NCBI GenBank assembly: GCA_964384425.1 | Contig: CAYLKE010000003.1 | Coordinates: 26,147-90,146 of the forward strand | DNA length: 64,000 bases | DNA from: an uncultured Methanosarcinales archaeon | GTDB taxonomy: Archaea; Nanobdellota; Nanobdellia; Woesearchaeales; JAGLXL01 | Direction: 5' to 3' | In this document: in pieces, positions 6,192-33,086 of the stretch | Position numbering within the stretch: the first letter of the stretch is position 1 | Layout: the number at the start of each line of letters is the position of its first letter | Position numbers and translations under genes: made by a program | Notes under the pieces: generated by a model | Told to the model about the DNA's origin: nothing | What the model saw: only the letters and a program-made list of their open reading frames with translations | Databases searched by the model: none

Positions 6192-6293
6192 TGGGTCCGA
6201 GGGGATTTGAACCCCCGACCACCAGCTGTCTTAGATTTGTGTAGAACACAGCCTTATAAGACTGGCGCTCCAACCAGACTGAGCTACGGACCC
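6192..6293 (-). tRNA. Intron-containing tRNA, best read as tRNA-Ile (anticodon TAT) with a 27-nt intron after position 37
   Basis: Acceptor GGGTCCG/CGGACCC, D arm GCTC..GAGC, anticodon stem CCAGT/GCTGG, T arm GGGGG-TTCAAAT-CCCCT. 34 nt lie between the anticodon-stem strands; CTTATA|27 nt|A gives a 7-nt loop with U33 and anticodon TAT. Confidence 0.7.
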
Positions 6294-13535: not shown

Positions 13536-15428
13536 TTATCTTAATCTTATTGTTTCTAGATTTTTAGGACTTATTGTCTCAACTTTCATTGTCTTATATA
13601 TCTTACTTGCTAATTCATTAACACTTCCTTGTTCACCGTGTTGTACAATAACTTTTCTAGGTCTAGGAACTGATTTTGTGACAAAATTCATAAGTTCTCT
13701 TCTATCTGAATGTCCTTTTACAGTAACCTTAGCAACTTCAAGATTTAAATTATATGTTGTAAAATTACCATTTTCTTTGAATGTTATTGCTCTTTCACCT
13801 TGCTGTATTCTTCTTCCTAAAGAATTCTGTGCTTGATAACATGAAAATATTAATGTATTCTTTTTATTTTCACCAAACATTTTCAGATACTGAACAGAAG
13901 GTCCTCCTGTAAGCATACCAGATGTTGCAAGTATTATGCAAGGTTCTTCATGATCTGCAAGTGCTAATCTTTCCTTATGAGATCCAACTTTCTTTATATT
14001 AGACATAAGAAATGGGTTCTCGTCTTTGTGGAAAATCTGTCTTCTTATATTTCTATTAAGAAATTCAGGATAAGCTGTATGAATAGCAGTTATATCCCAA
14101 ACCATTCCATCAATATAAATTGGAATAGCAGGTATTTTCTTTTTCTTAATAAGATTATGTAATATTATCAATATCTCTTGTGCTCTTCCTGAACCTAATA
14201 CAGGCATAAGAATTTTTCCTTTTCTCTTTATTGTCTTAGAAACAGTATCTACAAATTCATCATCAATTTCTTTTTGTGTCTTAACTTGAGATTCTTTTCC
14301 ACCATAAGTAGATTCAATAATCATAGATTCCATTCTTGCGAATTTGTTATTTGCTCCTTCTAGAAGATTTGTTCTTCCATACTTAAGATCTCCAGTATAA
14401 AGAAGGTTATGAAATCCATTTCCAATATTAAGATGTACCATTGATGAACCTAAAATATGTCCTGAATTAAAGAATGTTAATCTCACATCTGGTGTCACAT
14501 CTGTAACTTCATCCCACCCAACACAAATAGTATGCATTACCATCTTTTTTATGTCTTCTGTTCCATAAATTGGGTTTTTACCTTCTCCTGCTTGTATCTT
14601 TATCATATCCATCTGCAATAAAGCCATTACATCTCTAGTAGGGGCTGTACAATAAATAGGTCCTTCATACCCATATTTGAAAAGATATGGTATAAGTCCA
14701 CTATGATCGACGTGAGAGTGAGATATGATAACTGCATCAAGATCATTTATATTGAATTCTGGTGCTTCTAAGAAAGGGTATGCATCTTCATCACTTGCTG
14801 CAACATCTATTCCACAATCTAATAAAATACGTGATTCAGGAGTCTGTAAGTACATACATGATCTCCCTACTTGTCTTGCTCCCCCTAAAAACGTTAATCT
14901 AATCCATTCTTGTTTCTTTCCTCTCAACCACCCATCATAAATTCTATGACCTACTTTGTCAAGAAATTTTCTTCTATAATCAGAATTTTCATAAAGTGTT
15001 GCTCTTGTTTTTTCAATTATTTTTGATCTTATAGGAGGAATTCTTTTTACTATTGGTGTCCATAATGTTTTTTCTTTTATTTTTTTTAATAGTTCACCTT
15101 GTTTTCCTATTACCATTCCTGGTTTATCAACATGAATAATTAATCGAGACCTTTGTGCATCAAATATAATATCTGATATGTCTACATCTTTAGGGAGAAT
15201 TTTCTTGATAGCTTTCTTTGTATTGTCTGGATCCATTGTTATTGCTGGATCTGCTCTGACTTCTACTCGTTTTTTGAATTCATTAACTATCTTTCTTATA
15301 TCTTCTCTATTGTCTTTAAAGAATTCTCTATCTTTTGTGTAAAGAACAATATTTGCTCCTTCAAAATTTGCCTCGCTTATAACTTTGCTTGGTAATCGTT
15401 CTAATATTTCTTTTAATATATTTGCCAT
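13536..15428 (-). CDS. aCPSF1-type KH/metallo-beta-lactamase/beta-CASP ribonuclease (archaeal transcription termination factor FttA family)
   Basis: Two N-terminal KH-like modules (VIGKQGELLKKI), MBL motif HSHVDHSG, a beta-CASP C-terminal region, and the ~630-aa length typical of aCPSF1. Confidence 0.9.
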   Translation of the reverse strand: MANILKEILERLPSKVISEANFEGANIVLYTKDREFFKDNREDIRKIVNEFKKRVEVRADPAITMDPDNTKKAIKKILPKDVDISDIIFDAQRSRLIIHVDKPGMVIGKQGELLKKIKEKTLWTPIVKRIPPIRSKIIEKTRATLYENSDYRRKFLDKVGHRIYDGWLRGKKQEWIRLTFLGGARQVGRSCMYLQTPESRILLDCGIDVAASDEDAYPFLEAPEFNINDLDAVIISHSHVDHSGLIPYLFKYGYEGPIYCTAPTRDVMALLQMDMIKIQAGEGKNPIYGTEDIKKMVMHTICVGWDEVTDVTPDVRLTFFNSGHILGSSMVHLNIGNGFHNLLYTGDLKYGRTNLLEGANNKFARMESMIIESTYGGKESQVKTQKEIDDEFVDTVSKTIKRKGKILMPVLGSGRAQEILIILHNLIKKKKIPAIPIYIDGMVWDITAIHTAYPEFLNRNIRRQIFHKDENPFLMSNIKKVGSHKERLALADHEEPCIILATSGMLTGGPSVQYLKMFGENKKNTLIFSCYQAQNSLGRRIQQGERAITFKENGNFTTYNLNLEVAKVTVKGHSDRRELMNFVTKSVPRPRKVIVQHGEQGSVNELASKIYKTMKVETISPKNLETIRLR

Positions 15429-15522: not shown

Positions 15523-16158
15523 TTATTCAGAAAGTTTGTATACTAATTCTTCTCCCTTTAGATATTCTGCTCCTTTTGTTGTTACTTTAGCAATATCTAT
15601 TCCATTTCCAGAAGCACTGTCTCTTTGTAATGCTGCATTTACACATTTTATAACTAATTTAGTTGCTTCAGATTCTGTTAAATCTTTTTTATATGCAGAT
15701 TCTAAAACACCATATGCAAATACAGATCCACTTCCAGATGAGACATATTTATCAATTTCTGTTATTGATCCGTCTGGGAATATATCATATAAATGTTGGC
15801 CATCTCCATCTTTTCCACCTAATAAAAAGTGTGTTACAGATGGCATCATACTTGGCTGTCTTATACCACTATATAATATGCTTCCTAACATATTTGCTGC
15901 TTCTTTTATTGTTATATTTCTTTCTGTTCTAATCTCTTTTAATGCTACTTCTGCTTTTATGTACTTTATGAATAATTGAGCATCAGAAACATTTCCAGCA
16001 ATTGTCACTGCAATGTTTGGGTTTAATATATGTAGTTTTTTTGCCTTTTTATCCACAATCAAATTTCCTGCTGTTGCTCTCCTATCAGTTGCAAGGATCA
16101 CACCATCTTTATATTTTATTCCAACAGTTGTTGTTCCTGTTTTCAAGTTTTCTGTCAT
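15523..16158 (-). CDS. psmB: Proteasome subunit beta
   Basis: Short propeptide followed by the catalytic TTTVGIKYKDGVILATD. Ntn-hydrolase pattern throughout. Confidence 0.9.
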   Translation of the reverse strand: MTENLKTGTTTVGIKYKDGVILATDRRATAGNLIVDKKAKKLHILNPNIAVTIAGNVSDAQLFIKYIKAEVALKEIRTERNITIKEAANMLGSILYSGIRQPSMMPSVTHFLLGGKDGDGQHLYDIFPDGSITEIDKYVSSGSGSVFAYGVLESAYKKDLTESEATKLVIKCVNAALQRDSASGNGIDIAKVTTKGAEYLKGEELVYKLSE

Positions 16159-16335
16159 TAATACACCTCCTCTATAAATGTAAGAGTAGAATTTAATTTA
16201 TATATTGTTTTGATAATGGGGTTTATAAATGTTTTGTTTGAGTCTGAAAATCTTTCGGATTTTTTACCCATAGCTTTTTATACCTTAATTTTCAATTTTA
16301 TTATAGGATTCATGTTAAATAACGGAGGAAATAAA

Positions 16336-17625
16336 ATGAAAAGAACTCTTACTAATGATATCAAAGATAAAATTGGAAAAAATATTATGGTTAAAGGTTA
16401 CATCAAAAATATAAGAAAATTTGGTGGTGTAACTTTTTTAGCATTAAATGATTTATGTGGAAATCTACAATTAATTAGTAATGACGAAGACAAATTTAAT
16501 GATGTTAAAAAAAATGATATTGTTGCTGTTGAAGGACTAATTAGGGAAGATGATAGGTCCAAATTAGGTTACGAAATGTTAACTAATAAAATTGAAGTAA
16601 TTTCAACAACATCAGAAAAATACCCCTTAAGCATTAGTCCAAAAAGCCAATATAAGTTAGATAAAATTCTAAAAAATAGGCCATTAACAATCAGAAATCC
16701 AAAAATCTTAGATGTGTTTAAGGTTCAAGGAACTATTGCACAATCATTTAGGGGATTTTTAAATGATAACTATTTTAAGGAAATATTTACTCCAAAAATT
16801 GTTTCTCAAGTGGCTGAGAGTGGATCAGATATTTTTGCATTAGATTATTTTGGAAATAAACTTTCATTGACTCAAAGTCCTCAAATCTACAAACAAATAA
16901 TGGTTGGGTCGGGCCTTGAGAGAGTTTTTGAAGTTGGTCATGTATATAGAGCAGAAAAACATGATACTAAAAGACATTTAAATGAATATGTAAGTTTAGA
17001 CATTGAAATGGCATTTATTGATTCATATCATGATTTAATGGATTTAGAGGAAAAAATGATTAGGAAGATTGTTGGGGATGTTAAGGAAAAGCATTCAGAT
17101 GTATTAAAAAATTATTCTGTTGAAATTAACTTGCCTGAAAAAATTCCTAGAATGCCTCTCCATGAAGTTAAAAAAATATTAAGGGAAAGGTATAATCATA
17201 AAATCCCGGATTCAAAAGACATTGATCCTAAAGGAGAAAAATTAGTTGGTAAATTCTCTAAAGAAGAATATGGTTCTGATTTTATATTCTTAACAAAATA
17301 CCCAAAACTAAGTCGACCATTTTATACAAAACTTTGTAATAAAAATCCAAATTTAACAGATTCATTTGATTTTTTGATGAATGGAGCAGAAATTACAACT
17401 GGTGGACAAAGAATTCATGATTATTCTATTCTTCTTGATAGTATGAAAGACTTTGGATTAAATCCAGAACATTACGAAGATTATTTATCTGCATTTAAGT
17501 ATGGAATGCCACCTCATGGTGGAATGGGAATTGGAATAGAAAGATTGACTATGAAGATACTTAATTTAGATGATATCAGGGAAGCAAGCTTATTCCCAAG
17601 AGATAAAATAAGATATAAACCATGA
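16336..17625 (+). CDS. aspS: Aspartyl-tRNA synthetase, archaeal type (class IIb)
   Basis: OB-fold N-terminus, motif 2 YRAEKHDTKRHLNEY, GGQRIHD, motif 3 GMGIGIERL. Start moved to the ATG at 16336, preceded by ggagga; the track ORF starting at 16210 reads through the promoter region. Confidence 0.85.
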   Translation: MKRTLTNDIKDKIGKNIMVKGYIKNIRKFGGVTFLALNDLCGNLQLISNDEDKFNDVKKNDIVAVEGLIREDDRSKLGYEMLTNKIEVISTTSEKYPLSISPKSQYKLDKILKNRPLTIRNPKILDVFKVQGTIAQSFRGFLNDNYFKEIFTPKIVSQVAESGSDIFALDYFGNKLSLTQSPQIYKQIMVGSGLERVFEVGHVYRAEKHDTKRHLNEYVSLDIEMAFIDSYHDLMDLEEKMIRKIVGDVKEKHSDVLKNYSVEINLPEKIPRMPLHEVKKILRERYNHKIPDSKDIDPKGEKLVGKFSKEEYGSDFIFLTKYPKLSRPFYTKLCNKNPNLTDSFDFLMNGAEITTGGQRIHDYSILLDSMKDFGLNPEHYEDYLSAFKYGMPPHGGMGIGIERLTMKILNLDDIREASLFPRDKIRYKP

Positions 17626-18326
17626 GTTTGAAAATAATTGCAATTGGCGGTGGAGAAATTAATTACAATGGTAGTAGTCAAACTATTGCAATTGATGAGG
17701 AGATTATTTCACTTTCTAATAAAAAAACTCCCTTAGTTCTTTTTGTACCCACTGCAAGCAATGATTCTGATAGTTATTTTAATTCATTTAAATCATATTA
17801 TGAAGAGAAATTTAATTGTAATGTTCAAGTTCTTAAATTGATTGAAAGTAATATAAGTGAAAAAGAAATTGAAGAAAAAATATCTTTATGTGATATTATT
17901 TATGTTGGTGGCGGGGATACAGAAAAGTTAATGAATGTTTTGAAAGAAAAAAATATCAGAAAGATTATTAATCGTTATGCTAATAAATTAGTCCTTTCAG
18001 GTATCAGTGCTGGAGGTATTTGTTGGTTTAATGAAGGATATTCAAAAGATAAAAATATGTTCATGAGGGGCTTAAATCTTACTAATATTAGCTTTTTCCC
18101 ACATTATAATAAAAACGACGATCTTCTTATAAAAAAAATTGTTGAAAATAAAAAAATAATTGCCTGTGAAAATAAAACAGCTCTTGTTGTCTTAGGAGAT
18201 CAATTTAAAATAATTAATTCTGATAATTTTTCTTTTGCTTATTTATTTTACTTGGAAAATAACACTATAAAAAAAGAAAAACTAATTATCAATAAATTTT
18301 ACCCCTTAAGTGTGTTGAATTCTTAA
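17622..18326 (+). CDS. Peptidase S51 (dipeptidase E/cyanophycinase-like) family protein
   Basis: GGGDT...L and the nucleophile elbow SGISAGG. Its start overlaps the aspS stop. Confidence 0.65.
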   Translation: MSLKIIAIGGGEINYNGSSQTIAIDEEIISLSNKKTPLVLFVPTASNDSDSYFNSFKSYYEEKFNCNVQVLKLIESNISEKEIEEKISLCDIIYVGGGDTEKLMNVLKEKNIRKIINRYANKLVLSGISAGGICWFNEGYSKDKNMFMRGLNLTNISFFPHYNKNDDLLIKKIVENKKIIACENKTALVVLGDQFKIINSDNFSFAYLFYLENNTIKKEKLIINKFYPLSVLNS

Positions 18327-19597
18327 AGATTTTTTATTGCCCATGTTAAAAAATCATTAAAGAAAATACATTTTTGTTCATCACATATTAATTCTTTTTT
18401 ATCAGGATGCTTCATAATGCTTTGCATAGGACAGACCCCACCACAAACAGTTAATGCCATACAATCAGCACATTTTTTGTGATTTAATCCTGTTCTCCTA
18501 AACCAAGATTGAATTTCATCGTAATCAAAATCCTTTATCTCATCAACTTTTTTATTGAATAATTTTTTGCTATAATTGATAGTACAATAACTAACTCTTC
18601 CATCAGGTGTTATGGATACAGTAGCATTATCAAATGTATTTGAACAAGTTTTTAAGACAGGTGTTTTGTCTTTTAATGCATTTATAATTTGAGATACAGG
18701 AGATGTTAGATTAACATTATTGTCAATACATAATCTAAGTATTTTTTTCATTTTATTTGAAAACATAATCCCATCAATTCCCCAAGAATAATTATGTTGT
18801 GGCATGTTTATTGTAATAGATTTAGGTTTTAATTCCCTTATTACAAATTCAGCTAATTCATCTAACACATCAATATTATTTTTAGAAGGAGTTAGTAATA
18901 TAAAGTTGTTTACATTATTTTTCTTTAATAATTTAAAACCTTTTATTGTGATGTCATATGTTCCTTTTTCATTAGGAGTTACTCTGTTATTATCATTCAT
19001 TTCTTTTGGCCCATCTATTGAAACACCCACTTTAAAATTATTCTTATTAAAGAATTTAGCTTTTTCTTCTGTTATTAAAGATCCATTTGTTGTTATAACA
19101 TAATGGCATTCTTGATTTTTCTCTTTTAAGTATTCAACTGCTTTTTTTATTAAATCAAATTTTAATAAAGGTTCTCCACCAAAAAATTGAATTATGATTT
19201 TCTTTGATTTATTATTTTTGATTAACAAATTCAATGATTTTTTTATACTATCCCATGTAATATCTTCTTTATTTCTATTAACAAAACAGTATTTACAAGC
19301 ATAATTACAATTATTAGTTAGCAATAACCTATACGAATTAATATTGATCTTTGAATTAGATATTTTGTTTTTTATTTTTGATGAGTCTTTATTATCTGAT
19401 TTATTTACTATAAATCTATTTTGAGTTAAATAATCAAATATTTCTTTCTCAGTTTTCTTAATTTTTTCAAATAAAGAATTTTTCATTAAATCGAATAATT
19501 CTTTATCGCATTCTAAAACAAGTAAATTTATTCTATTAAAAATAAAATATTTTTCTTCTTCATTGAACATATAAGTGTTTTTAGATAATTTATACAT
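18323..19597 (-). CDS. Radical SAM/SPASM peptide-modifying enzyme with N-terminal RRE-like domain
   Basis: CNYACKYC (CX3CX2C), GGEPLL, C-terminal CADCMALTVCGGVC (SPASM CX2CX5CX3C). About 95 aa precede the radical-SAM core. Confidence 0.8.
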   Translation of the reverse strand: MYKLSKNTYMFNEEEKYFIFNRINLLVLECDKELFDLMKNSLFEKIKKTEKEIFDYLTQNRFIVNKSDNKDSSKIKNKISNSKININSYRLLLTNNCNYACKYCFVNRNKEDITWDSIKKSLNLLIKNNKSKKIIIQFFGGEPLLKFDLIKKAVEYLKEKNQECHYVITTNGSLITEEKAKFFNKNNFKVGVSIDGPKEMNDNNRVTPNEKGTYDITIKGFKLLKKNNVNNFILLTPSKNNIDVLDELAEFVIRELKPKSITINMPQHNYSWGIDGIMFSNKMKKILRLCIDNNVNLTSPVSQIINALKDKTPVLKTCSNTFDNATVSITPDGRVSYCTINYSKKLFNKKVDEIKDFDYDEIQSWFRRTGLNHKKCADCMALTVCGGVCPMQSIMKHPDKKELICDEQKCIFFNDFLTWAIKNL

Positions 19598-19643
19598 AAA
19601 ATACGTAAGATTTATTGTTTTATAATATTTACTGTCTATATCT

Positions 19644-19659
19644 CGAAAAACTTTCGGAT
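19644..19659. promoter_or_regulatory. Operator-like palindrome between divergent TATA boxes
   Basis: cgaaaaactttcggat (GAAA-N3-TTTC + GGAT) lies between TATA-like elements at ~19617-19625 (minus) and 19674-19682 (plus). Related copies occur at 16245..16260 and 22657..22671. Confidence 0.35.
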
Positions 19660-19673
19660 TACATATGAAAAAC

Positions 19674-19682
19674 TTTATAAAT
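19674..19682 (+). promoter_or_regulatory. TATA box for the small ORF / radical SAM operon
   Basis: tttataaat is centred 28 nt upstream of the ATG at 19706. Confidence 0.5.
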
Positions 19683-19705
19683 CTCTTTTATTAAATTTAC
19701 ATAAA

Positions 19706-19771
19706 ATGAAAATAAAACAAAAAGAAATAAAACTAAAAATCGAATCACATAAAACATGCGGTTCAATATAA
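19706..19771 (+). CDS. 21-aa small ORF, candidate RiPP precursor peptide (MKIKQKEIKLKIESHKTCGSI)
   Basis: Found by hand and absent from the ORF track. TATA at -28, a 27-nt T-rich spacer, then the radical SAM gene at 19799. Single Cys near the C-terminus. Confidence 0.45.
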   Translation: MKIKQKEIKLKIESHKTCGSI

Positions 19772-19798
19772 TTTTTTTATTTTCTTTTATTTTTTAAA

Positions 19799-20668
19799 AT
19801 GAAACCATTTATAATTTTACTAGATAAGTGTAATCTTAATTGTAAGTATTGTTTTTATAGACAAAAGAACGATGCATTAAATAAAGAACTTGATTTTGAT
19901 TCTCTTAAAGGATTTTTATCTTACACAAAAAGATTTATTGATAATGAGATTATGGTTACTGGTGGTGAGCCTTTATTATATTCTCGTTTTGATGATCTAA
20001 TGGATTATTTTATTGAATCAGATTATAAAATGAGACTAAATTCTAATCTTACTTTGTTAGATACAGTTAATCAAAATAAATTAAAACAAGCAGTTAGTAG
20101 AGTAGATACAACAATAGATCACTTAGATGAAAAAATCCATAACTTGTTGAGAGGTGGACATAATAAATCAATGCAAAGTCTGAAAACATTGAATGACATG
20201 AATATCCCATTTGGTATTTCTATTATTATGAATAAAAATAATTATTTAGATACAGAAAAAATATATGAAAACTTATCAACTTTAAATCCAGATTATATAT
20301 TCTTTCAACCAGTCCATACTTTTTCTAAAAAATATGAGAAAATGTTTGGGTTAGGTGATATAGGTCATAATTCACTTAAAAAAATGACTACTAATCTAGA
20401 AAGATGGGCAAAAGAACAAAATCAAGAACACAAGTTAGAGATGTTAAAAGATTATTATCTTAACAATAAAGGACCAGATACTTACTGTCAAATGATTCAA
20501 AATAATTTTGTAATTAATTGTAATGGAGATGTTAATCCTTGTTTTCATATAAGTAATGCTGAATATGGTAATTTATACAAAGATAATACTATGAAGATTA
20601 TTGAAAACATCAAAAATTATGATAAAAGAAAGAAATGCTTCGCAGAGAAATGTTTTCCTCTTTATTAA
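19799..20668 (+). CDS. Radical SAM enzyme (short, Cys-rich C-terminus)
   Basis: CNLNCKYC (CX3CX2C), GGEPLL, and C-terminal Cys residues (YCQ...NCNGDVNPC, KKCFAEKC) suggesting an auxiliary cluster. Confidence 0.75.
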   Translation: MKPFIILLDKCNLNCKYCFYRQKNDALNKELDFDSLKGFLSYTKRFIDNEIMVTGGEPLLYSRFDDLMDYFIESDYKMRLNSNLTLLDTVNQNKLKQAVSRVDTTIDHLDEKIHNLLRGGHNKSMQSLKTLNDMNIPFGISIIMNKNNYLDTEKIYENLSTLNPDYIFFQPVHTFSKKYEKMFGLGDIGHNSLKKMTTNLERWAKEQNQEHKLEMLKDYYLNNKGPDTYCQMIQNNFVINCNGDVNPCFHISNAEYGNLYKDNTMKIIENIKNYDKRKKCFAEKCFPLY

Positions 20669-21423
20669 TCGATGTTTAAAATTTTCTTAATCATTTTAAT
20701 GTTTTCATTAGCAATTCTATTTTCTAATATATGGCCTAATTCTGAGGATGAAAGAAGGGGATCACCAATAACACCTATTTTACTTACATCTTTTAAATCT
20801 CCTCCTTGGAGTAATTTTTGATGATTATATTTCATAATATTGCCTTGTTGAATTTTTGTTTTTCTTACTTTATTAGGATATTCATTAAGCATAAAAGATG
20901 TTTCATATAAACCTGCATGACAAGAGTGAATGTCATGATTACCTATATTTGTTTTGAGATGAGTTCTTGCTTCAGTATCAATTATTTTGTCAAATTCATC
21001 TATTAAAAGAAAATTGATTGGAATAGTCAAGTTTTGTTTTATTGTTTGTATATTGTTATTAATTGGATTAATATTGCCCCCATGAGTTGTTATCAAGATA
21101 ATTCTCTTAAACCCATGTTTTTGAAGTGATAAAAATATATCATTTAATAAAAATGCTAAAGTTCTTTCTCTAAGTGTTATAGTTCCTTTAAAACTCATAT
21201 GGTGTGAGGAATATCCAAATGGGATAATCGGGGCAACAAGGATATTGTCCACTTTTTTTATAATCTTCTTAGCAATTGAATATGATGATAATGTATCAGT
21301 ATTTATGGGTAAGTGAGGTCCATGTTGTTCCATTGCTCCGATCATTACTAAAACTGCATCTATACCATTTTTTATCTCATGGTTTACTTCTTTCCAGGTC
21401 ATGTTTTCAATAAATCTTTTCAT
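20665..21423 (-). CDS. Creatininase-family amidohydrolase (MftE-like peptidase or ArfB-like deformylase)
   Basis: GAMEQHGPHLP..TD, TTHGGN and HAGLYETS are the family metal-binding motifs. Confidence 0.75.
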   Translation of the reverse strand: MKRFIENMTWKEVNHEIKNGIDAVLVMIGAMEQHGPHLPINTDTLSSYSIAKKIIKKVDNILVAPIIPFGYSSHHMSFKGTITLRERTLAFLLNDIFLSLQKHGFKRIILITTHGGNINPINNNIQTIKQNLTIPINFLLIDEFDKIIDTEARTHLKTNIGNHDIHSCHAGLYETSFMLNEYPNKVRKTKIQQGNIMKYNHQKLLQGGDLKDVSKIGVIGDPLLSSSELGHILENRIANENIKMIKKILNID

Positions 21424-21435
21424 TTTATATTCTTA

Positions 21436-22620
21436 TTATAGTAATCTTCTTTTTGATAAAACAGGAAATAAATTTGATTTTTTTATGTCATCATCTTTCA
21501 TTAGTTCACAAAACATGATATCTACTCCCATTCCAATTCCACAACTTGGTGGACTACCACAAGCAAGAGAATTAATATAATTTTCAAAATTATTTTTATT
21601 TAACCCTTTTTTCTCAATATTTGCAATTAATTCATCGGAATTAATTACTCTTTCTCCACCAGATGCAATGTTTGAAAAAATATTTCCCCATAATTCAAAT
21701 GAATGACAATAATCTTTTTCATCTTTAGTAAATGTTTTGTTAAAAAATGCTTTTGATTTTAGAGGATAATTCATTACCCAGAAAAAATCAGTATTAACAT
21801 ATTTTCTAATATCATTCATAAGGCCTTGATTTATTTGATGACTTTCACCCCAATTTACAATATGTCCTTTTTTGTTTAACATAGACAATACGTCGTCGTA
21901 AGTTATTTTATCGAATGTAAATTCTCTTTCTGGTGCAGTTGATTTAATTAATCCTTCAAATAGATATATAAATTGATTTTTATTAGTATATGATTGGGTA
22001 ATGTCTAATACTTGAAATTCATCAAGACGTGATTTTCTTGGCTTATCGTTTTTTCTAAATAATTTATCAATTTCATACACTCTATCAAAATCAGAACTAA
22101 TCAATATTTGGTGATAAATTATATTACTTATTTTCAAATTTGCATCTTTTCCATAGAAATCAAGATTAAATGAATTGGTTTTACTTTGAACATGATCTCC
22201 AACAATCGTAGGGGAATTTACTTCCATGAATGTGTTATTCTGTAAGTAATTTCTAATATTATGTAAAAAATTAGACTTTTTTTTGAAATATTCTTTTGCT
22301 TCTGGATCAGATAATTGGTATGAACGATGATTATAATCAATTGTTCCCCATTTCTTTCTTTCATAAGGATAAGGAAGTCCTTTTTGATTTTTAGATAATA
22401 TTTCTAATTCACTTCCATTAATCTCATAAGTAAATTTATTACTTAATGATTCTTGTAAATTCCCTTTTACACATACAATATCTCTTAATGAAACAGATCT
22501 ATTTAATTTGCTTTTTACAATTACTTGGTATTTTTCACTATCATTCTCTATGATATAGAAATCATAATTCTTAGTTTTATTTATATTCATGACTCTTCCA
22601 TAAATTTTATTTTCATCCAT
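21436..22620 (-). CDS. Divergent class IIb aminoacyl-tRNA-synthetase paralog (Asp/AsnRS-like) with degenerate catalytic motifs
   Basis: OB-like N-terminus and motif 1-like FMEVNSP. Motif 2 reads LFRKNDKPRKSRLDEF where aspS has YRAEKHDTKRHLNEY. Motif 3 reads GIGMGVDIM where aspS has GIGIERL, so the Arg is lost. Confidence 0.6.
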   Translation of the reverse strand: MDENKIYGRVMNINKTKNYDFYIIENDSEKYQVIVKSKLNRSVSLRDIVCVKGNLQESLSNKFTYEINGSELEILSKNQKGLPYPYERKKWGTIDYNHRSYQLSDPEAKEYFKKKSNFLHNIRNYLQNNTFMEVNSPTIVGDHVQSKTNSFNLDFYGKDANLKISNIIYHQILISSDFDRVYEIDKLFRKNDKPRKSRLDEFQVLDITQSYTNKNQFIYLFEGLIKSTAPEREFTFDKITYDDVLSMLNKKGHIVNWGESHQINQGLMNDIRKYVNTDFFWVMNYPLKSKAFFNKTFTKDEKDYCHSFELWGNIFSNIASGGERVINSDELIANIEKKGLNKNNFENYINSLACGSPPSCGIGMGVDIMFCELMKDDDIKKSNLFPVLSKRRLL

Positions 22621-25754: not shown

Positions 25755-28700
25755 ATGGCACCAAATATCAATGAAATCAAAAAAATGCTTGTAGATAATT
25801 TTGAAGGAGATAATCGTAAAAAAGTCTTCAAATATCTAAAAAGTAGAAAATTTGATGTAGATAAAATAAAACCTTTTAGATTAGGTGGAAAAGTTATTGA
25901 CCTTAGGCCAATGATAGAGAAAATTGATAATTCTTTAGAAAATTTTGAAACTTCAGAAAATAATACAGTAGATTATAATGATAATCTTACAATGCAAGAA
26001 GATGGTGCTAATAATTCTTTAGGAAAAACACATGAAAAAAGATACACCAATAATGATTTTCTTCATTACGAATACAAAATAGAAGATAGTCCTAATTATG
26101 TTTTTTTACAAAATAAAGTTAAAGATAATACAATAAGAAAATCTCTTATTGAATTAGAGAAAAATAACCCAGATAGATATCATGAAATGAAGTTTTTTGG
26201 AAAACAAGGTGCAATGGGTGCTATGATACTTGCAAAAGACAGAAAAGCATATGATAGTAGTGTGTTGATTAAAGTTCCAAAAGATATATCAAATTCAAAT
26301 AGTTTAATTAGATTTAGAAAAGAAGCAAAAGCAACAAGAATAGCTTCTGAAAAAGCAACTTCCAATCATCTTGTTGATCTTCATATAAAACCTGGAGATG
26401 CTGCTTATTCTGTTCAGAAAAGATTGAGTGACAGATCAATTTCTGGTGCTGATTATCATCTTAGAGCAGGTAATAAAGGAAGTCATCTTAAATCAAAATA
26501 TAGTTTAGATGACATTGTGTCTACTTTTACAAATCTTGTAAAACAAATGGATATTTTATCTCATGAAGGTTTAATACATAGGGATATTAAACCAGATAAT
26601 TTCTTGGTTGATCCTGATTTTAATACAACAGATGTTCTTGATTGGGGTTTAACTAAAATATTAGATGATGATAATACTTTAGAAGATAATGATGTAAGAG
26701 ATAGAGCTGAAGCTTTTAAAAATTCTATGACATTGCATGATGTTATTCTTGATGAAAATGGAAATTATAGTTCAAAAAGTAGAACTAAAGACAATAAAGA
26801 AGTTGTTTTAACAATGAATGCTATGGGAACACCATTGTATATGTCTTCTGAACAGGCAGATTCTGAAAGATTAGATCAAGTATCACATCAAACTGATATT
26901 TATTCTCTGGGAGGAGTTCTTTATTATATGCTTACTGGTACTGATCCTCGTCCTCTTAGTGAGAGAGGAAGAAAGGTTAGTGGATTGCCAGGGATAATGC
27001 TTATGAAATATGATGGTAGTTTTTCAGAAAATCTTGATTACAGAAGAATTAGGAAATTGAAAAAAGGAAAAGCTTTGGAAGGTATGATTAAGAAGATGAT
27101 GGCATTTAATCTTGATGAAAGATATCAAGATTATGGAGAGATTGTTGATGATATTAATAAATGGAAAAATGATGAAGATCTTTCTTGTTATGAATATTCT
27201 AAATTAGACAAGTTTAAGTTTTGGGTAAAAAATCAAACAGGGAAAGCAGTTGGTGCTGGTGCTGGAGCTTTATTTGCAATAGCTTTGATTGCTGGTGGAA
27301 TAGGATTTATGAATTATCAGAGTGGTGTTGAGTTAAAGGAAGCTGAAACAAGATTAGAGTTGAAAGAGAAAGAGCAAGAGAAACAGAAGAGTGAGAATGA
27401 AAAGAAACTAGCTTTGGAAAGAGCTAAGAAAAAAGGATTGGAGAATAAGTTGTTGAGTTCTTTCAATGAAAAGATTAAGAACTTATTTGGAAGAAGAAAA
27501 AAGAAATTGAATACTATAAATGAAATTGGATTTATGAATAACAACCACAATGATAATCTTACATTAATTAAATACACATTAAAAGATAATGATTGGGCAA
27601 ATTACATTACAGATGAAGTTTTTTGGAAATTAACTTATGCTGTAAGACATGAAAATCTAAAAAAACAATTGCCAGAATTATTAGTTAATACTAAAAATGA
27701 AGATATGCAAAAAGCAATTCTTGAAAATTGCAAATATTTTGATATCATAAGATATGATAAAAAAGATCTTGAAGATGAGTGGAAAAGAAAAAATATGTTA
27801 TTAGAACTTAGAAATAATGAAGGATTTAATGTAATAGCAAGATACAATTATTTAGATAGTTTGAGAAAAGTCAAGATAAAAACTTTGTTTAATGAAATTG
27901 ATAAAGAACATGAGATTATCGGATCAAAGATTGAAAAGAATTATCAAAATGCAATATTGGAGATTGCTAATTTCTTGAATGCATCTGCAAAAGATAGATT
28001 AACATTAGATGAGATTCTTAAAATTAAAAATACTTCTAAAGTAAGTTATTTTGTTGAAAGAATGAAAGAAAGAAATAAAAAAGATAAAAAAGAATGGATG
28101 GAAAAATACATTTCTAAGATAGAAGAGAATAAAGACTATCATGAATTATGTTTAGATATATCATTTGATGTTTATGATTTGTTGTTGAATTTTTCAAGAA
28201 GGTCAATGATAAATACTGAAAAATTTGTGAAACAGATAAATGCTGGATTTAATGTATTGCCTGCAGAAAGAAAAGAAAAAAAGATATGGGAAAAGATAAG
28301 AGAATATGATAAAGAAGTTAATAAATTTGATAATAATTTTATTGCAAAATATAAACTAAATTTATTGTCTAGTTTTGGTTATAATCTCACGTCAGACATT
28401 AATTCTGCTAAGTATTTAGTCACATTTCATGGAAAAAATACAAAGGAAAATTTAAATGATTTTAAGAAAAAATTAAATTTTTACTTGAAAAAAAATACAG
28501 AATTTGCTAAATTTAATAACGCTCCTGATGGAGAAAAATTATATAGTTATTTTAATAATGAAAAATCAAAAGCAAAATATTTTTTATTGGAATTTAAATA
28601 CAATATAAGAAAGGAAGATGACATGAATGAAAGAGATAAAATATATCAAAAATATGAAAATAAAATTAATAAATTAATTAATGAAATGAAAGATTATCAA

Positions 28701-28826
28701 AAAGTAATTAGCAGTATTTTGGATTTAACTAATAAACAAAAAAAATGGTTTAATAAAACAATAAATTTTTATGGTTCTGCATGTGAAACAATAAGAAATC
28801 TAATAGAAAAAAATAAGAAAAAATAA
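25755..28826 (+). CDS. Membrane-anchored eukaryotic-like Ser/Thr protein kinase with long coiled-coil/helical C-terminal region
   Basis: GKQGAMGAM (Gly loop), VLIKV, HRDIKPDNF, DWG (DFG variant), GTPLYMSSE. Single TM at AVGAGAGALFAIALIAGGIGF, then EKE-rich coiled coil. Confidence 0.8.
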   Translation: MAPNINEIKKMLVDNFEGDNRKKVFKYLKSRKFDVDKIKPFRLGGKVIDLRPMIEKIDNSLENFETSENNTVDYNDNLTMQEDGANNSLGKTHEKRYTNNDFLHYEYKIEDSPNYVFLQNKVKDNTIRKSLIELEKNNPDRYHEMKFFGKQGAMGAMILAKDRKAYDSSVLIKVPKDISNSNSLIRFRKEAKATRIASEKATSNHLVDLHIKPGDAAYSVQKRLSDRSISGADYHLRAGNKGSHLKSKYSLDDIVSTFTNLVKQMDILSHEGLIHRDIKPDNFLVDPDFNTTDVLDWGLTKILDDDNTLEDNDVRDRAEAFKNSMTLHDVILDENGNYSSKSRTKDNKEVVLTMNAMGTPLYMSSEQADSERLDQVSHQTDIYSLGGVLYYMLTGTDPRPLSERGRKVSGLPGIMLMKYDGSFSENLDYRRIRKLKKGKALEGMIKKMMAFNLDERYQDYGEIVDDINKWKNDEDLSCYEYSKLDKFKFWVKNQTGKAVGAGAGALFAIALIAGGIGFMNYQSGVELKEAETRLELKEKEQEKQKSENEKKLALERAKKKGLENKLLSSFNEKIKNLFGRRKKKLNTINEIGFMNNNHNDNLTLIKYTLKDNDWANYITDEVFWKLTYAVRHENLKKQLPELLVNTKNEDMQKAILENCKYFDIIRYDKKDLEDEWKRKNMLLELRNNEGFNVIARYNYLDSLRKVKIKTLFNEIDKEHEIIGSKIEKNYQNAILEIANFLNASAKDRLTLDEILKIKNTSKVSYFVERMKERNKKDKKEWMEKYISKIEENKDYHELCLDISFDVYDLLLNFSRRSMINTEKFVKQINAGFNVLPAERKEKKIWEKIREYDKEVNKFDNNFIAKYKLNLLSSFGYNLTSDINSAKYLVTFHGKNTKENLNDFKKKLNFYLKKNTEFAKFNNAPDGEKLYSYFNNEKSKAKYFLLEFKYNIRKEDDMNERDKIYQKYENKINKLINEMKDYQKVISSILDLTNKQKKWFNKTINFYGSACETIRNLIEKNKKK

Positions 28827-31343: not shown

Positions 31344-33086
31344 TTGATAAAATGTTTAGATTATGATATTGAAAGAGTTTTGAGTATTTTAGATTATAAA
31401 AATATAAGTTACACTCCATCAACTACAAATCTTATTAAAAAAGCCTATTTAATGAATTCAAAATTAACTGCAGAATATGTTAAGAAATATTTAAAAAAAG
31501 AAAATAAAGATAGCAAATATTTGTATCTTGCATTTAGGTTTATGGTAAAACACGATGCTGAAGTATTTGTAGATTTATACAAAAATATTACAAATAATAT
31601 TTTTGATAATCTATTTAATAATTCAAAAGACTATTCTGAAATAAGGCCCATAGTAAAAGCATTGAATTACTTAGTAAGAAAAAATATTAAATTATTTAAT
31701 GAATTGAGAGAAATGAGCAATACTTTTTTAGATTTTGAAATTGATGATAGCGACGATGAAAATTTATCTTTTAAAAAAATAATTAGTGTGTGTGAAAATT
31801 TTAAATATGCTTCTCAAAATTATGTTTTTAATTCTCCAACACAATTCTTAACTGATTATAATAATATAAATAATCAAATGAAAAAATTATTGTATATTAA
31901 TAAAATCAATGAAGAACAATTTAATACATTAAAGGAAGTGTATGTTCTCCCTGCATTAAGAAAATTAGCTAAAACCTTAGATTATGAAAAAATAAAACCC
32001 ATGGAAGAAATAGAATATAAATTTGTTAAAAAACTACTTAATGCGAATTTTATAAAGTGGGAAGGATGTGAAAGTGAAGAAGATATATTAAAAAAAATTA
32101 ATCCTTTATTTCATACAAGGAATAAATCTATACATTATAAAAAATATCATTCTATATTAGACGAGAAAAAGATTACGTCATTAAAAGAATTGCTTGAATG
32201 CGCTTCATATGATTTTGAAGGCATTTTCATAAAAAAATTAGGAGAAGGGTCTTTTGGTAATACTTATCTTGCCAAATTTATTGACAAAGGAGATAGGGCA
32301 GTTAAAATTATTAAAAAAAACAAAAACTTAGAAGAATCAATTATTTTGGATAAATTAAATCACAAGAACATTGTGAAGCTTTATCATTCGTCAGATAATG
32401 AGATTTCTAAATATGGAGAAGATTGTTCTTCTATATTTATGGAGTACATAGACGGAAAAGAACTAAGAGATATAATCGACAATAAAGAATTTAAAAAAGA
32501 AGATGCAAAGGAATGGACTTTAAACCTATTGGATGTTGTAAATTATCTTAATGAAAAAGAGATATACCACAGAGATATTAAACCAAGAAATATTAAAATA
32601 GATAGCAAGGGAATTTTAAAATTATTAGATTTTGGTGTTGCAACAACTAACATAGAAGAATATGAAGAAAAGTACAATAGAAAATATGGTGGAAGAAATA
32701 ATCTTTATTCTTTAAGTCTTATATCTTACGAATTATTTACAAGAGAATATCCTATTAAAAATGAAAAATTATTATCTACTAATTCCTTTAAAGATATGTT
32801 GAAAATATTAAAAGATGAGATGTTAGATAATGGAATCCTCAAAGATAAGTACAGATCTAAAATAAAAGAAAACATGCCTAAAGAGTTTCAAGAACCTATC
32901 ATTGCTGCTTTAGAATACAGACCACAAGAAGAATTAAATAAAGCTTTTTTTAATTTGAATGAAATAATCAAAATAAAAGAATTTGAAAGAAAAAGACCTA
33001 AAATAATCCAAACAATGAAAGATTGTGGATTTAATATTGATGGTATTACATATGATAAATATAAAAAAATAAAAAAATCATTTTAA
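31344..33086 (+). CDS. Ser/Thr protein kinase with N-terminal helical-repeat region
   Basis: GEGSFGNTY, AVKIIKK, HRDIKPRNIKID and LLDFGVA in the C-terminal 300 aa. The annotated start is TTG, and no ATG occurs in the open frame back to 31182. Confidence 0.75.
   Translation: MIKCLDYDIERVLSILDYKNISYTPSTTNLIKKAYLMNSKLTAEYVKKYLKKENKDSKYLYLAFRFMVKHDAEVFVDLYKNITNNIFDNLFNNSKDYSEIRPIVKALNYLVRKNIKLFNELREMSNTFLDFEIDDSDDENLSFKKIISVCENFKYASQNYVFNSPTQFLTDYNNINNQMKKLLYINKINEEQFNTLKEVYVLPALRKLAKTLDYEKIKPMEEIEYKFVKKLLNANFIKWEGCESEEDILKKINPLFHTRNKSIHYKKYHSILDEKKITSLKELLECASYDFEGIFIKKLGEGSFGNTYLAKFIDKGDRAVKIIKKNKNLEESIILDKLNHKNIVKLYHSSDNEISKYGEDCSSIFMEYIDGKELRDIIDNKEFKKEDAKEWTLNLLDVVNYLNEKEIYHRDIKPRNIKIDSKGILKLLDFGVATTNIEEYEEKYNRKYGGRNNLYSLSLISYELFTREYPIKNEKLLSTNSFKDMLKILKDEMLDNGILKDKYRSKIKENMPKEFQEPIIAALEYRPQEELNKAFFNLNEIIKIKEFERKRPKIIQTMKDCGFNIDGITYDKYKKIKKSF

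Follow-up and report, generated by a model that had tools for sequence, protein, structure and literature searches.

The 64,000-nucleotide stretch of archaeal DNA analysed here (the window) contains an open reading frame (ORF) of 21 codons, hereafter the micro-ORF, which lies between two genes for radical S-adenosylmethionine (SAM) enzymes and which was examined as the candidate precursor gene of a peptide made by the ribosome and modified after translation (RiPP). The region has a G+C content of ∼25%, and its archaeal origin is indicated by genes for aCPSF1 (13536-15428) and a proteasome beta subunit (15523-16158). A previous sequence-only reading of this DNA had described the micro-ORF, the T-rich stretch of 27 nt that separates it from the small radical-SAM gene and, as flanking genes, an S51 peptidase, a creatininase-family protein and a paralog of a class II aminoacyl-tRNA synthetase (aaRS), all of which were found to be present (Table 1). 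The large radical-SAM gene is oriented divergently from the micro-ORF and the small radical-SAM gene. The S51 gene is convergent with the large radical-SAM gene, with an overlap of 4 nt, and also overlaps the stop codon of the aspartyl-tRNA synthetase (AspRS) gene by 4 nt, while the creatininase gene is convergent with the small radical-SAM gene. Rfam and tRNA scans gave no match in the region of the micro-ORF locus.

Table 1 Features of the micro-ORF locus, with positions numbered from the first nucleotide of the window
Feature	Position	Strand	Remarks
AspRS, non-discriminating archaeal	16210-17625	+	523 bits, cut-off 353
S51-family serine peptidase, 234 aa	17622-18326	+	GISAG Ser and His conserved
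Large radical-SAM/SPASM enzyme (putative maturase), 424 aa	18323-19597	-	RRE at about residues 1-65, radical-SAM core, seven-Cys SPASM
TATA-box-like octamer TTTATAAA	19674-19681	+	-32 to -25 from the ATG of the micro-ORF
Micro-ORF, 21 aa, MKIKQKEIKLKIESHKTCGSI	19706-19771	+	Candidate precursor: Lys-rich leader, short Cys-containing core TCGSI
T-rich spacer, 27 nt	19772-19798	+	From the stop of the micro-ORF to the start of the small radical-SAM gene
Small radical-SAM enzyme, 289 aa, without RRE domain	19799-20668	+	CX3CX2C and four conserved C-terminal Cys
Creatininase-family amidohydrolase, 252 aa	20665-21423	-	ExHGxHLPxxTD metal motif present
AspRS paralog, 394 aa	21436-22620	-	Degenerate active-site motifs; 12 nt upstream of the creatininase gene

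A 21-codon ORF is by itself unremarkable in this DNA, since 131 ORFs of at least 20 amino acids are found in 13 kb. The TATA box that had been assigned to the micro-ORF is represented by an octamer at the tabulated distance from the ATG, but this octamer occurs in the window at chance frequency (22 found versus 21.4 expected) and is therefore not evidence alone, leaving only its position, which fits a leaderless archaeal transcript, as suggestive. It is conservation in homologous loci, rather than size, that marks the micro-ORF as more than a chance event. The loci used for comparison were contigs carrying homologues of the large enzyme (L001, L002, L004, L005, L087, L089 and L090, among others). 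In homologous loci a Lys-rich ORF of 19-34 amino acids is located immediately 5' of the first radical-SAM gene, and all the encoded peptides start with Lys-rich sequence and have a Cys among residues 18-21, with a Ser at +2 or +3 from it. The closest relative, L001 (50% identity), has the divergent arrangement seen in the window and a minus-strand ORF, MEIREKTSELENIETHKSC, that reads ...IETHKSC before being cut by the contig end, the window counterpart being ...KLKIESHKTCGSI (...KIESHKTCGSI, then stop). The peptide of L089 (38% identity), MEYELKKMDVAEQYTVESCGSI, ends in ...TVESCGSI with its stop codon 9 nt before the large radical-SAM gene, and that of L002, MKVKKIKKLKRSIKGNSCQSGS, ends in ...KGNSCQSGS and is separated from the small radical-SAM gene by 18 nt. 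The complete peptides of L005, MKLVQRKKQKIKTSSSTKLCMQSGGCSDVPAK, and L090, MKLQRKRKKAQIKASTKVKYCMQSGGCTDNPKTR, share the C-terminal pattern ...CMQSGGC[ST]D.P. A less certain candidate of 67 amino acids with a TTG start, MKLISKNPQKSTVVSGELCLRSTS..., is present in L004, with a Cys at position 19 and a Ser at +3.

Comparison of codons within the conserved residues revealed synonymous turnover. In the block IE[ST]HK[TS]C, the window and L001 use different codons for four of the five identical residues (GAA/GAG, CAT/CAC, AAA/AAG and TGC/TGT); between the window and L089, the codons for Ser and Ile in CGSI show nothing but synonymous differences (TCA/TCT, ATA/ATT); and L005 and L090 have four synonymous changes over nine conserved residues (CAG/CAA, TCA/TCT, GGA/GGT and CCT/CCC). 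Since identical residues are specified by different synonymous codons, these data indicate selection on the peptide, which by this measure is under purifying selection. Absence of conservation had been named beforehand as an outcome that would speak against a peptide gene; instead, the micro-ORF proved to be conserved beside radical-SAM genes with a coding-type pattern of substitution. Among the small ORFs of the window, an M[KE][ILVY] start together with C-x(1-2)-S whose Cys falls within residues 17-21 is found in only two of 393. A search of the peptides against NCBIfam (E ≤ 10) returned no match to a known family. The abundance of ORFs of similar length and the chance frequency of the octamer might invite the view that the micro-ORF is a functionless chance ORF in AT-rich intergenic DNA, but this is refuted by the comparative data, in which peptides are kept across loci whose large radical-SAM proteins share only 34-50% identity, and by the synonymous turnover just described, such that virtually no probability is attached to it.

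The divergent gene had been described as encoding a radical-SAM/SPASM enzyme with an N-terminal RRE domain, an assignment that was substantiated by motifs, by profile and fold matches and by an AlphaFold2 model. The CX3CX2C motif comprises C97, C101 and C104, and the seven-Cys SPASM motif (CX9-15GX4C ... CX2CX5CX3C ... C) comprises C318, G333 and C338, followed by C376, C379, C385 and C389, and finally C410; the motif residues of both domains are invariant across 16 homologues. In the model (overall pLDDT 88), the RRE domain occupies residues 1-65 with pLDDT >90 and consists of beta strands followed by helices at residues 32-39, 43-49 and 51-59. A profile of the family aligns with TigE (8VPO) over its full length with 208 bits, starting at residue 9 and including the RRE domain, which in TigE spans residues 3-85 (PMC10878394), and with CteB with 198 bits. 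Foldseek comparisons gave TM scores of 0.75 for TigE and 0.73 for CteB. All of the NCBIfam matches listed act on a peptide or protein, with PapB scoring best (150 bits), followed by families that include CcpM, HxsB and the SCIFF maturase (114 bits), together with maturases of anaerobic sulfatase and quinohemoprotein amine dehydrogenase. The enzyme nevertheless lies far below all curated NCBIfam cut-offs (340 for PapB, NF047865; 425 for SCIFF, TIGR03974). The radical-SAM enzymes fall among peptide-modifying families; a placement among those for cofactor or tRNA modification would have counted against a peptide product. More distant homologues of the large enzyme adjoin Cys-rich precursors in L092 and L174, indicating that the clade seems to act on Cys-containing peptides. 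Fusions with GNAT acetyltransferase domains were also observed in several distant homologues of both radical-SAM enzymes (P0019, P0042, P0047, P0050, P0060, P0066 and P0157), one GNAT-fused homologue being annotated as archaeal. Wider scans were less productive. A profile scan of genome contigs with the large-enzyme alignment was swamped by generic CxxxCxxC and GGEPL patterns, and neither the S51 gene nor the small enzyme was found nearby in any of the loci that it yielded (L007-L086). A scan of viral contigs recovered generic radical-SAM genes only, with at most 30% identity over long matches.

The small radical-SAM enzyme carries its four conserved C-terminal cysteines at C230, C248, C280 and C285, which suggests a single auxiliary cluster held by a twitch or partial SPASM domain. 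Its best sequence match in the PDB is SkfB (107 bits), with CteB also close, and its AlphaFold2 model (pLDDT 86) has SuiB, BlsE, anSME and SkfB as fold neighbours; no curated family cut-off is reached. Small and large enzymes are paired in the window, L002, L004, L005, L087 and L173, with varying gene order. Locus L005 is labelled Falkowbacteria, and one homologue of the small enzyme is labelled Dojkabacteria. At the level of sequence comparison, AT-rich archaeal contigs and bacteria carrying these two labels share a conserved three-gene core, comprising the precursor, the RRE-bearing large enzyme and its constant RRE-less partner. In L004 (3499-8419) and L005 (5245-8339) the peptide/radical-SAM cluster was observed downstream of dnaG and rpoD, with at least one small gene between, which suggests a conserved chromosomal site in that bacterial lineage. 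The accessory genes of L004, L087 and L090 that could not be assigned gave only faint metalloprotease-like hints when compared with Pfam (E ≤ 1).

The S51 gene, which had been noted only as a flanking gene, emerged as a conserved peptidase partner, adjoining the radical-SAM pair in the window, L001, L002, L004 and L005 (five of the six informative loci). The protein scores 124.9 bits against Pfam PF03575 (gathering threshold 23.9), does not reach the PepE or cyanophycinase equivalog cut-offs, and has S129 (of GISAG) and H161 in positions that are invariant in five cluster-linked S51 homologues. In L005 the gene overlaps the stop codon of the small enzyme by 4 nt and is translationally coupled to the operon. 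A 2023 review does not include S51 peptidases in its list of RiPP leader peptidases (PMC10885120). From a metagenome scan for S51 relatives, 80 loci were obtained with similarity to the window protein equal to that of the cluster-linked homologues, almost none of which has a radical-SAM gene, and these served as a control for a census of neighbouring genes. In the S51 neighbour census, class II Asp/Lys/Asn tRNA synthetases (tRNA-synt_2) accounted for five of 114, joint top with methyltransferases and GNAT proteins. Among unrelated metagenomic contigs, an archaeal-type AspRS directly adjoins S51 in L096, L097, L117 and L155, and a protein resembling class II lysyl-tRNA synthetase (LysRS) does so in L129 and L151. 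Since AspRS and S51 recur together without a radical-SAM gene, they form a pair in their own right, and a peptide-processing role for the S51 protein is plausible but not secure. The AspRS of the window is apparently co-transcribed with the S51 gene, and the two are probably a housekeeping pair, with AspRS not being a pathway gene; such pairing might, for example, couple an Asp-X dipeptidase to the charging of Asp. A TTG codon opens the AspRS ORF, 41 codons before homology begins, and the hydrophobic N-terminal extension so formed (16210-16332) is probably not translated, the real start probably being near 16333 (Met42), given that the NCBIfam alignment begins at residue 42.

The conserved small gene adjoins an RRE-bearing radical-SAM/SPASM enzyme whose relatives are peptide maturases, and for this reason a RiPP-type locus is the best reading of the data. 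The locus is accordingly regarded, with a probability of about 0.68, as a compact and previously undescribed ribosomal-peptide modification system, and it looks like a member of a small new family of enzyme-modified peptides common to AT-rich archaea and ultra-small bacteria. In the scheme that is envisaged, the micro-ORF would have a TATA-like promoter of its own and give rise to a leaderless mRNA. Archaeal transcription terminates at oligo-T tracts, and the T-rich spacer may act as a partial terminator that sets the ratio of precursor to enzyme transcript, passing only part of transcription into the small radical-SAM gene and so raising the level of precursor transcript. The RRE domain of the large enzyme would bind the Lys-rich leader, and the enzyme, with two auxiliary clusters, would then modify the core at or next to the Cys, most likely through a cross-link from the Cys sulfur to carbon (a thioether), the type of linkage made by the related enzymes CteB and PapB. 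A second radical modification would come from the small enzyme, and the S51 serine peptidase would trim or release the product.

Several observations weigh against this reading. Only about seven independent loci were examined, several of them on short contigs, and only four proteins exceed 190 bits to the small enzyme in a word-indexed protein search, so that its family looks rare. The radical-SAM pair of L087 has no visible precursor, the upstream sequence being cut there. A precursor of 21 amino acids, with a leader of ∼14 residues, is unusually short for RRE-dependent recognition. Apart from the Ser at +2 or +3, no cross-link acceptor residue is conserved, and a search of the peptides for an acidic acceptor at a constant distance from the Cys, of the kind known from PapB substrates, gave none. 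The thioether chemistry is a guess from relatives, and TigE, the closest structure, makes cyclopropylglycine. Finally, the S51 peptidase is not specific to the system, as comparable genes (36-43% identity) occur beside AspRS or LysRS genes without a radical-SAM gene.

Some of the same evidence could feasibly be accommodated if the micro-ORF were a regulatory upstream ORF, or encoded a small structural peptide, with the radical-SAM enzymes acting on another substrate such as a protein. The ORF always immediately precedes the first radical-SAM gene, an attenuator might be formed by the T-rich spacer, and some SPASM enzymes mature whole proteins, anSME being among the matches obtained. However, what is conserved is the C-terminal Cys motif and not codon composition, the large enzyme carries an RRE domain, and its distant relatives adjoin classical Cys-rich precursors, so an upstream ORF is considered quite unlikely. 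A different scheme follows the sequence-only reading, which had seen in the locus the logic of mycofactocin biosynthesis (MftA/MftC/MftE), whereby a radical-SAM/SPASM enzyme would oxidatively process the C-terminus of the peptide and a creatininase-family peptidase would excise a small redox cofactor or metabolite. The window does indeed contain all three gene types, the metal-binding motif of the creatininase homologue is intact, and its score against MftE (TIGR03964; 127 bits) nearly equals that against creatininase (130 bits). Both scores are below cut-off, however (172 for MftE), and MftC (TIGR03962, cut-off 265) is not among the 25 best NCBIfam matches of either radical-SAM enzyme of the window; the small enzyme of L002 scores 76 bits against it. 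No creatininase homologue was found in the homologous loci with readable flanks (L001, L002, L004, L005 and L087), nor more broadly in L001-L006 or in any gene called in L087 and L089-L092, and equivalents of MftB, MftD and MftF were absent from the neighbours scanned. A resemblance had also been suggested between the end of the peptide and that of MftA, but the peptides end in CGSI, SCQSGS or CMQSGGC.D.P.. (including ...DVPAK), with C-x(1-2)-S as the conserved feature and GVY in none. By these tests of membership the mycofactocin scheme is largely refuted and is regarded as highly improbable, and of the earlier interpretation it is the RiPP-type locus, with its conserved micro-ORF and RRE enzyme, that stands. 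Identity of the creatininase homologue with ArfB, an archaeal deformylase of the riboflavin/F420 pathway, would have pointed to that pathway instead but was not found (NF033501, 24.6 bits versus a cut-off of 180), and the membership of this protein in the system is doubtful. The catalytic degeneracy ascribed to the class II aaRS paralog was confirmed, three active-site motifs being altered: QSPQ is replaced by ISNI, YRAE of motif 2 by FRKN, with loss of the Glu, and GIGIERL of motif 3 by GMGVDIM, with loss of the Arg. Against the AspRS cut-off of 353 bits, the protein scores 214. Among 5.8 billion proteins, the relatives of this paralog were itself and true AspRS proteins at ∼20% identity only. 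It is probable that the genes for the creatininase homologue and the AspRS paralog are neighbours particular to this lineage and do not belong to the core.

The recurrence of aaRS genes around the clusters raises the further idea of a functional link with translation, in which the modified peptide, or a fragment freed from it by S51, would mimic an amino acid or aminoacyl-adenylate and the neighbouring aaRS genes and their paralogs would confer self-protection, following a microcin C-type logic, or in which the aaRS-like proteins would aminoacylate the peptide. In four of the six informative family loci, genes for aaRS or aaRS-like proteins are found a few genes away from the cluster, and such genes make up ∼9 of 40 neighbouring genes by a rough count, which is above expectation. 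The window has AspRS and its paralog, L001 has a class I and a class II LysRS, L002 has tryptophanyl-tRNA synthetase and a 378-amino-acid protein resembling alanyl-tRNA synthetase (AlaRS), and L005 has a 399-amino-acid AlaRS-like protein with an altered active site; two distant loci have seryl-tRNA synthetase (SerRS; L139) and AspRS (L149) beside radical-SAM relatives. The core moreover tracks the type of aaRS in the three cases visible (CGSI with AspRS-like, C(M)QSG with AlaRS-like), GNAT domains are fused to some distant homologues, and L004 carries a peptidase of family S66, the family that includes MccF. Set against this, AspRS-S51 and LysRS-S51 adjacency occurs without a radical-SAM gene, such that much of the signal may come with the S51 gene, and L004 and L087 have no aaRS gene. 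The paralog of the window, an orphan, lacks QSPQ and the Arg of motif 3, so that it probably neither activates Asp nor substitutes for AspRS, and no nucleotidyl transferase is present. Small genomes are in addition rich in translation genes, and the AlaRS-like genes could be split housekeeping subunits. Because the S51-aaRS pairing carries part of the signal and because of this richness in translation genes, an aaRS-tied module common to DPANN-like archaea and bacteria of the candidate phyla radiation (CPR), whether with S51/S66 hydrolases as self-protection or with an aminoacylated peptide, is judged unlikely.

A number of observations were made on the aaRS genes themselves. In L001 (2196-5175), a class I LysRS gene (352 bits, cut-off 147) is divergent to a class II LysRS-like gene whose product has intact motifs 2 and 3 and scores 318 bits, below the cut-off of 468; it is unusual for a single archaeon to carry the two LysRS classes next to each other. 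The AlaRS-like proteins of L002 (11878-13014) and L005 (12901-14100) resemble the AlaRS catalytic domain, score far below AlaRS cut-offs and match each other only weakly (30 bits), and in that of L005 a Lys replaces the Arg of the conserved CxR motif in alignment with A. aeolicus AlaRS. The two proteins might represent either paralogs or the subunits of a split AlaRS. The SerRS of L139 (5332-6511) is split into two overlapping ORFs, as is the radical-SAM/SPASM gene of L149 (4963-6253), and these splits may be frameshifts, pseudogenes or assembly errors. Elsewhere in the window, Rfam detected a third tRNA of 102 nt (6192-6293, minus strand) between tRNA-Ser and tRNA-Asn that is not reported by ARAGORN and that may be an intron-containing archaeal tRNA. 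Two large proteins, encoded a few kilobases downstream of the locus at 25755-28826 (1023 amino acids) and 31344-33086 (580 amino acids), contain eukaryotic-type Ser/Thr protein kinase domains, and several ORFs without a family match lie around and between their genes.

If correctly interpreted, the system would add a minimal RiPP family in which a precursor of 21 amino acids with one reactive Cys, a very small size for a candidate substrate of radical-SAM enzymes, is accompanied by two such enzymes and an S51 peptidase. Its hosts would be small-genome archaea and CPR bacteria, in which secondary metabolism is barely explored; across the CPR and DPANN genome set of one survey, only 37 putative biosynthetic gene cluster regions were reported (PMC12153355). 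A search of the literature on radical-SAM enzymes with S51 peptidases or aaRS proteins, and on RiPPs of CPR bacteria and DPANN archaea, found no description of such a system. Were the clustering with aaRS genes real, it would offer a possible new link between peptide natural products and translation, and an aaRS-tied module, if true, would possibly be a tool of a host-dependent lifestyle in DPANN-like archaea and CPR bacteria. Small as the system is, it should lend itself readily to heterologous reconstitution, from which the chemistry would become apparent.

Among known systems, mycofactocin is alike only in that one neighbourhood unites a small peptide with a radical-SAM/SPASM enzyme and a protein of the creatininase family. 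The His-Xaa-Ser system similarly pairs a large RRE/SPASM enzyme (HxsB) with a radical-SAM enzyme of ∼300 amino acids (HxsC), but the peptide of the window has no HXS repeats, and scores are well short of the cut-offs (117 bits for the large enzyme against HxsB, cut-off 370; 66 bits for the small enzyme of L002 against HxsC, cut-off 268). TigE/TvgB (8VPO) is the best solved-structure match of the large enzyme both by profile and by fold; in tigD and tigE the tig cluster likewise possesses two radical-SAM genes, and the TIGSVS repeat of TigB is loosely like the window core TCGSI. The cyclopropyl synthases are, however, defined by a strictly conserved GYW motif, the Tyr of which ligates auxiliary cluster I (PMC10878394). 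This motif is absent from the family described here, in which TGYWH faces non-conserved residues (NLTSPVSQ in the window), and the precursor, unlike that of TigE/TvgB, is not repetitive and has Cys rather than Val or Ile as its invariant residue. The thioether-forming maturases, among them CteB for SCIFF peptides, PapB for ranthipeptides and sactisynthases such as SkfB, share the combination of RRE, radical-SAM and seven-Cys SPASM domains with a Cys-containing precursor alongside; CteB is the second-best PDB match and PapB the best NCBIfam match of the large enzyme, and the small enzyme is closest to SkfB. In contrast to these systems, the present one has a precursor of 19-34 amino acids with one Cys (two in the bacterial form) instead of six or more, two radical-SAM enzymes, an S51 peptidase and AT-rich archaeal or CPR hosts, and it misses all curated cut-offs. 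By analogy, then, the locus would work in the manner of the sactipeptide, ranthipeptide and SCIFF radical-SAM RiPP systems, yet it meets none of their family thresholds.

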